The notes under the pieces are model-generated. The model saw only the letters and a list, made by a program, of their open reading frames with translations, had not been told where the DNA came from and did no database searches. A stretch of 15,441 nucleotides of DNA from a virus. Each line of letters starts with the position of its first letter. Positions within the stretch are counted from its first letter, which is position 1. Position numbers and translations under genes: made by a program. The DNA is taken from UHGV virus genome UHGV-0099063, one strand, 5' to 3'. Positions 9,408-11,566 of the stretch are shown here, in pieces.

Positions 9408-9484
9408 CTTATAACCAAAGATAACTCAAGTTATAAAAAATAGCAATAACCTTTGTTATTTTACTTTGGATAACCGTAGTTATA
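9408..9484. promoter_or_regulatory. right operator region OR: three 14-bp palindromes ATAAC-N4-GTTAT
   Basis: ATAACtcaaGTTAT (9421-9434), ATAACctttGTTAT (9446-9459), ATAACcgtaGTTAT (9470-9483), spaced about 25 bp apart between the divergent cro and cI starts, plus an extra half-site at 9411-9416. Confidence 0.65.
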
Positions 9485-9495
9485 GATTTGTGAGT

Positions 9496-10203
9496 ATGAA
9501 AACATTCGCAGAAAGACTAAATGCAGCCATGAGCTCAGCAGGGGTATCACAATCACAGCTTGCTGACATGGTTGGAATATCTCAGCCAGCCATACAGAAG
9601 ATGTCGTCCGGTAAAACAAACGGATCTCGCAAGATGGTTGAATTAGCCAATGCTTTAAAAGTGCGTCCTGAATGGCTTAGTTCTGGTATTGGTGAAATGA
9701 GGGATGGTGCACATGAAGAACCATCCAATGTCCGTGAGTCATCTTTAAAAGCTGTGGTATGGGAAGACATTAAAAGAAACGATGACGAGTTTGTTGCGTT
9801 GCCTCTTCTTAACGTTTCGCTTTCAGCTGGAAGCGGTAGCTGCGAGCTAGAGGAATCATCGGAGTTCTCTTTGGTTTTCAGAAAGCACTATCTGAAAAAG
9901 ATGGGAGTATCAGAAAGATCAGCCAAGCTAGTTAGGGTTGTAGGGCAAAGCATGGAACCAACGCTTCACGATGGCGATGTTGTTGGTGTTAACACGCAAG
10001 ATACCACAATCAGAGATGGTAAAACCTACGCTATTTGCCAGTCTGATTTGTTACGAGTAAAAACATTAATCGCCACCCCTACATCGGTGATAATCAGATC
10101 AATAAATCGCGAAGAGTACCCGGATGAAGTAATGGATAGAGATGAATTTCATGAAACCGTAAGGATTATTGGCAGAGTATTCTGGTCGTCTCATAGTTGG
10201 TAA
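9496..10203 (+). CDS. cI: CI-type prophage repressor (N-terminal HTH, C-terminal S24 LexA-like autopeptidase)
   Basis: HTH SQSQLADMVGISQPAIQKM; candidate Ala-Gly cleavage site in LSAGSG; catalytic Ser in GQSMEP and a downstream Lys in LLRVKTL. ATG 9496 lies 12 nt after the third operator with no clear SD, compatible with a leaderless pRM-type transcript. Confidence 0.9.
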   Translation: MKTFAERLNAAMSSAGVSQSQLADMVGISQPAIQKMSSGKTNGSRKMVELANALKVRPEWLSSGIGEMRDGAHEEPSNVRESSLKAVVWEDIKRNDDEFVALPLLNVSLSAGSGSCELEESSEFSLVFRKHYLKKMGVSERSAKLVRVVGQSMEPTLHDGDVVGVNTQDTTIRDGKTYAICQSDLLRVKTLIATPTSVIIRSINREEYPDEVMDRDEFHETVRIIGRVFWSSHSW

Positions 10204-10243: not shown

Positions 10244-10540
10244 ATGGAATTTCTGATAGTTTTTGTTGTTGTTTTGGTCATCATTCTTTTTGTTTTGCTA
10301 AGCATTAGCAAAAAGCTATCTCAAATGATTGAACATAGCTCTAATCGCGCAAAAGAAGAAGAGCATCTAATTGATATAAAAGAGATTCTCTCTGATATAA
10401 AAATCACATTAGATGAAATAAAATACACAACAGATCTAATTGAACAGTATAAAATACCAACCCCAAACGAGAGAAAAGCAATAGATCAATATCGTATTGA
10501 CTTAGAAATCGACGAAATGCTAAGCAAAAGAAAAGACTAA
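10244..10540 (+). CDS. small membrane-anchored protein co-transcribed with cI (rex/sie-position gene), function unknown
   Basis: 98 aa; N-terminal hydrophobic helix EFLIVFVVVLVIILFVLLSI, then a charged, probably helical domain. GGAGGG 4-5 nt before the ATG; starts 40 nt after the cI stop; markedly AT-rich relative to flanks; followed by a strong terminator. Confidence 0.65.
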   Translation: MEFLIVFVVVLVIILFVLLSISKKLSQMIEHSSNRAKEEEHLIDIKEILSDIKITLDEIKYTTDLIEQYKIPTPNERKAIDQYRIDLEIDEMLSKRKD

Positions 10541-10545
10541 AAACA

Positions 10546-10572
10546 CCCGGCCTCAGCGCCGGGTTTTCTTTT
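10546..10572 (+). terminator. rho-independent terminator ending the cI operon
   Basis: Stem CCCGGC/GCCGGG (10546-10551 and 10558-10563), 6-nt loop, followed by TTTTCTTTT (10564-10572). Confidence 0.75.
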
Positions 10573-10694: not shown

Positions 10695-10780
10695 ATACCT
10701 TTGTTATCCATCACTTATAACTTATTTACCATAAAATATAAATTAGGTTATTGACCACACCTATAACCTAAGTTATCTTT
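10695..10780 (+). promoter_or_regulatory. left operator/promoter region OL-pL
   Basis: Operator-type palindromes ATAACctaaGTTAT (10763-10776) and variant ATACCtttGTTAT (10695-10707), plus a TTATAAC half-site. Candidate pL: -35 TTGACC (10750-10755), 17-bp spacer, -10 TATCTT (10773-10778) overlapping the operator. Confidence 0.5.
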
Positions 10781-10825
10781 AAGCCATCAGCAGGACGCTG
10801 GAAGCCAAACGGAACAGATTGGCAG

Positions 10826-10866
10826 GCTCTTTAACATTGATGGGATTGTCCCGCCGAAATGCGGGA
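10826..10866 (+). promoter_or_regulatory. nutL: boxA plus boxB hairpin
   Basis: GCTCTTTAACA (10826-10836), then hairpin TCCCGCCGAAATGCGGGA (10849-10866), identical to the nutR boxB; downstream of the candidate pL and upstream of N. Confidence 0.65.
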
Positions 10867-11296
10867 ACTGAGTTTAACCAAACAGGAGGTGCCGTAATGG
10901 TGCACTAACGCGGTTAGACCGCAGCCGAAAGGCAATGCAGCAGTAATGATGCTGCCCTGAGTCGCCATTGAGCGAGCCTGCTTAGCATCGGGTTAGGGTC
11001 AATATATTAAAAGTAGCTCCGGTAAAGCAGCGCGAATGCCAGACGCGCACCGGTTATCAGCGGCGATGAAGCGGCAGAGACTCAATGGCATGAGCGCGCT
11101 CACTGCGAGAGTGTGAGTCAAAGAGTAGTTGGCTTTGGGATTGGGTGAATGCGCAGACTGATGCGATATGACCTGCACTGGCGAGGAGACGATCCTCAGG
11201 GGGTCACTAGGCGTGATAATGACCAGGCGAAGCACTAACCAAGCCGGAGATCAGTACCGTCCACCTAATCACCAAAGCCAATCATCGGAGTTCAAC

Positions 11297-11566
11297 ATGA
11301 TAATCGTTACTTATCTGGCTGATGATAACGCCAGAAATCGCCGCAGAGCACGCAGACAGGCTCAACGTGAACAGGCAATGCAAGAACAGCGATTGGCACG
11401 AAAAATTGCGCTAAAGCTCTCTGGTTGCGTCAGAGCAGATAAAGCAGCATCACTCGGAAGCCTTCGCTGCAAGAAGGCAGATGAATGCAGTGGAAGTATT
11501 TGCCTGCCAAACGTAGCTATTTACGCGGCAGGCTACCGGAAATCAAAACAACTGACGGCGAGGTAA
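11297..11566 (+). CDS. N: N-type antiterminator (P22 gp24-like) with N-terminal arginine-rich motif
   Basis: From ATG 11297 (GGAG 6 nt upstream): MIIVTYLADDNARNRRRARRQAQRE... with C-terminus LPNVAIYAAGYRKSKQLTAR, matching the recalled P22 gp24 (MTVITY...LPGVALYAAGHRKSKQITAR). The upstream in-frame extension from 11168 lacks an RBS and would bury the arginine-rich motif. Confidence 0.8.
   Translation: MIIVTYLADDNARNRRRARRQAQREQAMQEQRLARKIALKLSGCVRADKAASLGSLRCKKADECSGSICLPNVAIYAAGYRKSKQLTAR

Follow-up and report, generated by a model that had tools for sequence, protein, structure and literature searches.

The unusually long leader between nutL and N in the virus genome UHGV-0099063 is a lambda-type N leader that also holds a conserved, mobile, structured RNA cassette. 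This cassette (hereafter, the module) is a horizontally mobile structured RNA of temperate phages of the Enterobacterales, and every copy lies, in sense orientation, in a transcription unit antiterminated by N or Q. To judge from Rfam 15 and from the literature that could be searched, the module is an undescribed class of RNA with an unusual, ribosome-linked signature. We refer to the whole stretch of DNA analysed, 15,441 nucleotides, as the window.

A lambda-type N leader and its RNA cassette

The plus strand of the window runs in the direction called 'leftward' in lambda, and the layout and much of the sequence are those of phage HK620, in which pL, nutL and N are annotated. The region contains the following features:

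9466-10203: CI-like repressor gene (phrog_4)
10244-10540: 98-aa ORF in the rex position between the repressor gene and pL (phrog_18389, a family of unknown function), with a hydrophobic N-terminus
10545-10564: intrinsic terminator
10751-10779, plus strand: pL promoter, TTGACC-17-TATCTT, from a promoter scan; aligns with the annotated HK620 pL
10826-10865, plus strand: nutL, from its sequence; aligns with the annotated HK620 nutL
10826-10834, plus strand: boxA GCTCTTTAA, part of nutL
10850-10865, plus strand: boxB hairpin CCCGC-CGAAAT-GCGGG, part of nutL
10883-11121, plus strand: RNA module, from a covariance-model match; missing from HK620 at the same site
11122-11296, plus strand: lambda-type N leader
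11128-11147, plus strand: 5' arm of the long-range stem, from the minimum-free-energy fold, with compensatory differences in relatives
11148-11261, plus strand: variable interior of the N-leader stem, from alignment; 59 nt in HK620 and mEp213
11262-11282, plus strand: 3' arm of the long-range stem, ending 4 nt before the N Shine-Dalgarno sequence
11287-11290, plus strand: N Shine-Dalgarno sequence GGAG
11297-11566, plus strand: N gene, 89 aa, ATG at 11297 (phrog_271 N-like antiterminator, E 2.5e-33); 95.5% DNA identity to HK620 N

Three hallmarks of a lambda-type N leader are present: boxA and boxB downstream of pL, an N-family gene, and a long-range stem at the N ribosome-binding site. Ahead of its ATG, the N frame stays open for a further 43 codons (11168-11296), giving a possible 132-aa form; the extension falls within the variable segment of the leader, and HK620 and mEp213 do not conserve it.

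The sequence-only reading had described the interval from boxB to N as unusually long, at about 430 nt, and GC-rich. The length of 430 nt is confirmed, with boxB ending at 10865, one base before the position given there (10866), and it compares with 107 nt between the annotated end of nutL and N in HK620. In lambda, about 150 nt separate boxB from the N AUG. The interval has 53.7% G+C, against 44.8% for the window and 37% for the 600 nt upstream. Since nutL and N of HK620 are 87-95% identical to those of the window, the extra sequence can be located precisely. Window positions 10722-10868 match HK620 through the end of boxB, positions 11119-11139 match the next 21 nt of HK620, and the alignment resumes at 11272 with the ribosome-binding site and N. 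Relative to HK620, the window thus has approximately 250 extra bases immediately 3' of boxB, in addition to a longer variable segment (132 versus 59 nt). The extra block is an indel exactly between boxB and the leader stem, and the event could have been either an insertion in the lineage of the window or a deletion in HK620. Among 201 phage records matching the nutL/N region, only about seven contain the interior sequence; relatives with the extra block are two Stx2c-converting phages, mEp213 and Hafnia phage yong1. By contrast, phages IME10, Gally and 611R6 have the whole 175-nt segment downstream of it, at ~69% identity, without the module, indicating that 11122-11296 is the normal N leader.

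The long-range stem of this leader includes an exact inverted repeat (11129-11138 with 11272-11281), and it is kept with compensatory differences in Stx2c phage 5044, HK620/mEp213 and Hafnia phage yong1. The compensating arm pairs among these relatives are AUUGGGUG/CACCUAAU, AUUGGAUG/CAUCCAAU, GGUGACG/CGUCACC and GGUGUGGUG/CACCACACC. An RNase III site had been suggested for the interval, and what supports the suggestion is this predicted stem of the lambda RNase III type, adjoining the N ribosome-binding site and showing compensatory changes among relatives. The lambda counterpart is cut by RNase III and couples nutL-bound N to repression of N translation; the arms in the Hafnia relative, GGCUUUGGGGUGUG and CACACCACCAAAGCU, presumably match those of lambda. 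The window therefore resembles lambda in having boxA and boxB just after pL and a long-range stem of ~20 bp whose 3' arm lies just before the N Shine-Dalgarno sequence. It differs in having a 240-nt module between boxB and the stem, which is absent from HK620 and IME10 and, we presume, from lambda itself.

A direct repeat is found at the two ends of this arrangement, with TAACCAAACAGGAG at 10875-10888, at the 5' edge of the module, and TAACCAAGCCGGAG at 11236-11249, inside the N-leader loop. Judged from sequence, it may have been left by a recombination event that brought module and leader together.

Fold and covariation of the module

The module folds into approximately ten helices with a three-way junction and a pseudoknot:

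10910-10922, plus strand: P1 hairpin GCGG-TTAGA-CCGC (10910-10913 with 10919-10922); CGG/CCG invariant
10924-10933, plus strand: P2 hairpin GCC-GAAA-GGC (10924-10926 with 10931-10933); 3 of 3 pairs changed on both sides, length varying in relatives
10937-10955, plus strand: P3 hairpin, loop GUNRUGA (10937-10942 with 10950-10955); both-side changes in 6 of 6 pairs, 95.6-96.8% paired
10956-10998, plus strand: three-way junction, closed by P4' (10956-10958 with 10996-10998)
10962-10965 with 10972-10975, plus strand: P5; 3 covarying pairs
10976-10980 with 10989-10993, plus strand: P6; 2 covarying pairs and an invariant G.U
10984-10986 (P6 loop) with 11016-11018, plus strand: pseudoknot; both-side changes in 2 of 3 pairs, 78% paired in the MAFFT alignment
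11019-11023 with 11049-11053, plus strand: P8, enclosing P9; 2 of 5 pairs covarying
11030-11034 with 11044-11048, plus strand: P9, its loop with a conserved GCCA; 5 of 5 pairs covarying, 99% paired
11058-11080, plus strand: variable hairpin region P10; three types among homologues in alignment A3
11081-11117, plus strand: near-invariant block CTCAAGGGCATGAGCGCG (CUCAAGGGCAUGAGCGCG) with hairpin CUCA/UGAG (11081-11084 with 11091-11094), including P11; used as search pattern
11099-11103 with 11113-11117, plus strand: terminal hairpin P11; 2 covarying pairs, 99% paired

Evidence for this fold comes from alignment A3, a MAFFT alignment of 49 sequences less than 90% identical, in which junctions and loops are conserved and stems differ in sequence and length. 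Standard pairs form in 93.6% of its cells, as compared with 32-35% when the partners are slid by one to three columns. Changes on both sides are seen in 27 of 47 pairs (237 cells), against 11-18 pairs (27-74 cells) in the slid controls. The covariation score was 0.362, against no more than 0.082 in controls, and was reached in none of 500 shuffles; the shuffles ignore phylogeny, for which the slid controls correct. A covariance model built from A3 (R1) matched window positions 10883-11121 at 249 bits (E 6e-73) and found one copy per homologous locus. It gave no match in HK620, in the HK022 immunity region or in a locus identified by chance (below). In a larger alignment of 75 isolate and species-representative sequences (A4), which was fitted to R1 and hence leans towards structure, 97.1% of cells were paired and 27 of 44 pairs had both-side changes. 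Overall, 93-97% of cells were paired, versus 30-38% in slid controls. The invariant G.U pair of P6, together with U.G-to-A.U switches, places the fold on the transcribed strand.

Individual helices vary in how far covariation bears on them. The CGG/CCG of P1 is invariant, so covariation speaks neither for nor against this hairpin; an alternative proposed by RNAalifold, pairing the 3' strand of P1 with GCG at 11096-11098, shows one-sided changes only. A first long-range helix, CCC.GAG with CUC..GGG, was dropped because GAG changes to GAA uncompensated in five sequences. It was replaced by CCY with RGG (10956-10958 with 10996-10998), which covaries: the third pair of P4' switches between C:G and U:A (44 versus 22 sequences). 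The P2 hairpin, GCCGAAAGGC (10924-10933), resembles the loop region of boxB, GCCGAAATGC (10853-10862); this likeness is probably a coincidence, since P2 loops vary freely in homologues. Natural deletion variants also exist (L154, L175, L186, L143 and L165): L154 lacks P1-P3, L175 and L186 are shorter, and lengths of 160-200 nt occur among the others; in L159 and L164 only the 3' 40-55 nt of the module are left.

These data bear on three earlier suggestions. The hairpin GCAGCA-GTAATGA-TGCTGC at 10937-10955, noticed in the sequence alone, is real: it is P3, and all six of its pairs covary. The proposal that the interval holds a regulatory RNA structure was right in that covariation identifies the block as a conserved RNA structure; as a structure specific to N it does not hold, the same module being found after Q and after lysis genes. 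The idea of a remnant of an inserted element stands to the extent that the block was inserted or deleted relative to HK620, but the block is intact, widely conserved and unlike an insertion sequence (IS) or MITE. We detected no terminal inverted repeats and no flanking or target duplications around it; together with the occurrence of one or two copies per genome, this led us to reject an IS or MITE remnant.

Other identities were also discarded. A protein-coding gene in either orientation is ruled out, since 258 of 339 indels relative to the window (76%) are not multiples of three, substitutions are not periodic in threes, and a comparison of homologues leaves no frame uninterrupted. Rfam 15 returned no match at E<=1 on the window, no real match at E<=10 on 10860-11300, and none for two homologous loci; ARAGORN found no tRNA or tmRNA. 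The 9-10-mers common to the module and the rrnH operon are at chance level, so mimicry of or complementarity to rRNA was rejected. There is neither a promoter nor a sense-strand terminator in the interval, whose base composition favours G over C (129 versus 102). A riboswitch or attenuator was dismissed because of this lack of a terminator and because downstream genes and distances vary; a terminator follows the module only in phiKO2. Homology to HK022 put was likewise rejected: in HK022 24000-32000, which we expect to hold putL and putR, neither nhmmer with the family HMM nor cmsearch found any similarity. AgvB, AsxR and STnc100, known EHEC prophage sRNAs of the late moron site, were excluded as their Rfam families gave no match; Pas, also of that site, was tentatively set apart from the module. 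The searchable literature, in which coverage is incomplete and an earlier description may exist, included a review of small RNAs in phages from 2025 and a survey of sRNAs in prophages from 2026, and contained nothing at this position or of this kind.

Genomic contexts and a mini-ORF at the 5' edge

The module is present in at least 190 phage or prophage loci of Enterobacterales, always in sense orientation, and in three settings: pL leaders, sites just 3' of the terminator downstream of Q, and sites after lysis genes. A distant BLAST search with 10867-11139 found the core (approximately 10911-11115) at 68-85% identity at unrelated sites. In Klebsiella phages RothC and RothD and coliphage mEp237 the module is just downstream of the gene for the Q antiterminator; coliphage 733R5 has it between lysis genes and terminase, and Edwardsiella EPP-1 and Providencia PSTCR7lys have it in the early-left region. 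In phiKO2, a linear-plasmid prophage, it follows gp62 and is itself followed by a terminator. In total, 18 GenBank phages carry homologues. We scanned genomes and IMG/VR with the near-invariant 27-mer of the module as pattern, identifying at least 120 IMG/VR contigs and, in bacteria represented by one genome per species, 66 loci. One of these, from a Pirellulaceae MAG, is a chance match with no homology to the module and no covariance-model match, leaving 65 that carry it. Among these, the non-Enterobacterales are two assemblies, labelled Vagococcus and Bacillales, which may reflect contamination. Genera with the module include Kluyvera, Citrobacter, Enterobacter, Klebsiella, Xenorhabdus, Morganella, Proteus, Providencia, Edwardsiella, Pectobacterium, Erwinia and Tatumella. 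The module is carried by 117 of 5426 complete E. coli genomes, none of which annotates an RNA there and a few of which annotate a 'hypothetical protein'; carriers include Stx2c-converting phages and prophages of O145 and 55989. There are one or two copies per genome, all in prophages and usually one per prophage.

We determined the nearest genes in non-redundant sets of loci. Upstream on the same strand (n=142) were at least 28 CI-like repressors, at least 21 Q-like antiterminators and 12 Rz-like spanins; downstream (n=123) were 13 N-like genes, ~15 holins and an otherwise diverse set. In Q contexts the module comes directly after a tR'-like terminator, and in pL contexts a nut-like region precedes it. 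The distance from the module to the next gene is variable, with a median of 80 nt and ~180 nt in the window, and sometimes the next gene is a tRNA. A tRNA gene lies just downstream, 11-82 nt after the module, in five of 195 loci (L005, L069, L134, L140 and L150); those of L005, which is RothC, are Met and Arg according to ARAGORN but Ile and Arg in GenBank, and the other four loci have Ser, Arg or Asn. A linkage to tRNAs was dropped, as it is confined to these five loci.

Several loci have features of their own. Phage mEp213 (L002, 394-726 and 1879-2151) has two N genes, one HK244-like and one HK620-like, and its module is upstream of the second, preceded by its own boxB-like hairpin. In EPP-1 (L006, 1815-2873), approximately 1 kb of GC-rich sequence without a convincing ORF separates a divergent gene from rdgC. 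The module is preceded there by sequences similar to the N-leader stem arms; we saw no N-like ORF, and more structured RNA may be present in this stretch. In a second class of pL leader (L020 4980-5160; L096, L105 and L118; Xenorhabdus and Morganella loci), the module is preceded by an rrn-like boxA, TGCTTTTTAACAA, and by a conserved motif, GAACGGGCAACACTGGC, and is followed by a long-range stem of the same kind; an acidic ORF of 64 aa replaces N.

At its 5' edge the module carries signals for translation initiation:

10884-10889, plus strand: Shine-Dalgarno sequence AGGAGG of the mini-ORF, with a 7-nt spacer to the ATG
10897-10908, plus strand: mini-ORF ATG GTG CAC TAA, three codons and a stop

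In 116 of 128 distinct homologous 5' ends, a start codon (113 times ATG) is positioned exactly 13-14 nt before the CGG of P1; it is missing from this position in ~9% of homologues. A purine-rich Shine-Dalgarno sequence lies within -15 to -4, at -12 to -9, in 113 of the 116 with a start, the spacer itself being unconserved. The start is followed by no sense codon in 17 cases, by one in 27, by two in 66 and by five in five, and a stop codon occurs within five codons in 115 of 116. The encoded peptides are unrelated (M, MKH, MKQ, MV, MVH, MHQ and others). Variants in which the ATG is directly followed by a stop nevertheless keep the distance from ATG to P1, indicating that the conserved feature is the position of ribosome initiation relative to the fold and not the product. 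A ribosome with AUG in its P site has a 3' edge that reaches about +15, so that a ribosome on the mini-ORF would be predicted to reach the foot of P1. In principle, the ATG and TAA could instead be structural nucleotides. Shine-Dalgarno sequence, start and early stop, conserved across homologues, are the sequence marks of a leader minigene, of which lambda bar is another. The sequence-only reading had seen no convincing coding ORF in the interval. There is indeed no long conserved ORF; there is, however, a conserved ribosome-binding site with a three-codon ORF. The conserved ORF with a ribosome-binding site that it had named as evidence against its view exists only in this degenerate form, with zero to two sense codons and an unconserved peptide.

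Possible mode of action and significance

We are highly confident of what the module is; our account of how it works is tentative. Taken as a whole, the explanation that we favour, with moderate confidence, is that the module travels in antiterminated operons as an autonomous RNA passenger that docks a ribosome, and is not a regulator of N. The module would be transcribed from pL as part of the leader, and a ribosome initiating on the mini-ORF would come to lie right next to the fold. Together with this compact, G-rich structure, the ribosome would delimit and protect the RNA. The functional product would be the folded RNA, and not regulation of N; the folded body, whether as a stable RNA or as a ribonucleoprotein, would probably act on some conserved component of the host. 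We regard the module as a passenger, an RNA 'moron', because HK620 and others use the same nutL and N without it, and because most copies are not next to N. Its restriction to antiterminated operons may arise because an untranslated RNA of ~230 nt would elsewhere be prone to Rho-dependent polarity; the same logic of antitermination versus Rho polarity applies to rRNA operons, and the G-rich, tightly folded nature of the module fits it.

Among the other readings, one that is possible, though improbable, sees in the module a phage RNA of a new class whose action depends on the ribosome that it recruits: with the start codon kept 13-14 nt from the fold, an initiating 30S or 70S would dock there, and the structured domain would trap, mark or exploit it. 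The ribosome could then serve as a shield or folding chaperone, or the RNA could interfere with host translation or with ribosome-dependent defence. To a similarly low probability we assign a cis-acting stabiliser or insulator, in which the parked ribosome and the fold would bar scanning by RNase E, or loading and translocation by Rho, protect the downstream message (here N) and prevent misfolding with upstream sequence. The location of the module at the 5' end of long operons or between cistrons is consistent with such a role, as are a strong ribosome-binding site with an A/C- or U-rich upstream spacer and a G-rich sequence unlike a rut site. There are also precedents in two-codon leader minigenes that act in cis on the next gene: the AUG-AAA-UAG minigene in the EHEC LEE1 leader acts on ler (PMC3262186), and minigene mg2 of axe-txe acts in cis, possibly via mRNA protection (PMC8708949). 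The module resembles these in having a Shine-Dalgarno sequence and a two- to three-codon ORF in an untranslated leader, and in that translation, and not the peptide, would matter. In both precedents, however, the distance to the next start is critical (PMC3262186, PMC8708949), whereas the module conserves the distance from start to fold, and the next gene lies at no fixed distance. Moreover, the module has start-stop versions and its ORF is part of a mobile RNA module, and simple protection needs no intricate conserved fold of ~210 nt with near-invariant single-stranded blocks.

An RNA-based processive antiterminator or anti-Rho element acting on polymerase, like HK022 put, we consider unlikely. 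The module does share with putL and putR the character of a cis-transcribed structured RNA directly downstream of a lambdoid early promoter (pL or, for the module, also the late promoter region), and some pL leaders with the module show no nearby N-like ORF (EPP-1 and L020). Yet the HK022 immunity region has no similarity to it by family HMM or covariance model, and put is ~70 nt long, whereas the module, at ~240 nt, is three times that size and has a ribosome-binding site and mini-ORF. The module coexists with N and nutL or with Q; in Q contexts it is downstream of tR', the terminator that Q must read through; copies also follow lysis genes; and HK620 has the same nutL and N without it. Some of the same observations make a dedicated regulator of N synthesis very unlikely. 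Such a regulator would extend the autoregulation of the lambda type, where nutL-bound N represses translation of N and RNase III lifts this repression. The position of the module between nutL and the leader stem in the window, the Stx2c phages, mEp213 and Hafnia phage yong1 invites this reading, and module and long stem recur together in other pL leaders, so that a cis role in early leaders is possible. An N-like protein is encoded downstream in only 13 of 123 distinct cases, though, with copies after Q and after Rz, and HK620, IME10 and Gally share the leader and N without the module. There remains a small protein gene, sense or antisense, or decayed mobile DNA without function at the RNA level. 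This we regard as extremely improbable, even though some RefSeq and GenBank records call a 'hypothetical protein' over the module and a 78-aa antisense ORF is present at 10999-11235. Contradicting it are the indels, the absence of codon periodicity and of a lasting open frame, the lack of terminal inverted repeats and target duplications, the usual single copy per prophage, and the fact that compensatory changes and G.U pairs are peculiar to the sense strand.

GOLLD, ROOL, HEARO and similar RNAs are large, phage-associated structured RNAs of unknown function. Like these, the module is prophage-borne, with an ornate conserved fold, near-invariant loops, no adjacent dedicated protein gene and occasional tRNA neighbours; unlike them, it is much smaller, limited to Enterobacterales and without an Rfam match, and its 5' edge bears a translation start. 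AgvB, AsxR, Pas, STnc100 and IsrK are likewise non-coding RNAs of lambdoid prophages, some of them downstream of Q, but they are short, mostly Hfq-dependent, have their own ends and are mostly in Rfam. The module, in contrast, has neither promoter nor terminator, and it folds in a far more complex way.

Few stretches of DNA have been studied as thoroughly as lambdoid immunity regions, yet these contain an unannotated RNA of 240 nt whose covariation support is comparable to that of an accepted RNA family. Genome annotation now places spurious hypothetical proteins over it. A start-stop mini-ORF at a fixed distance from a fold is an unusual signature that provides a testable link between a non-coding RNA and the ribosome, and the distribution of the module indicates that untranslated structured RNAs can travel as 'morons' specifically within antiterminated operons.
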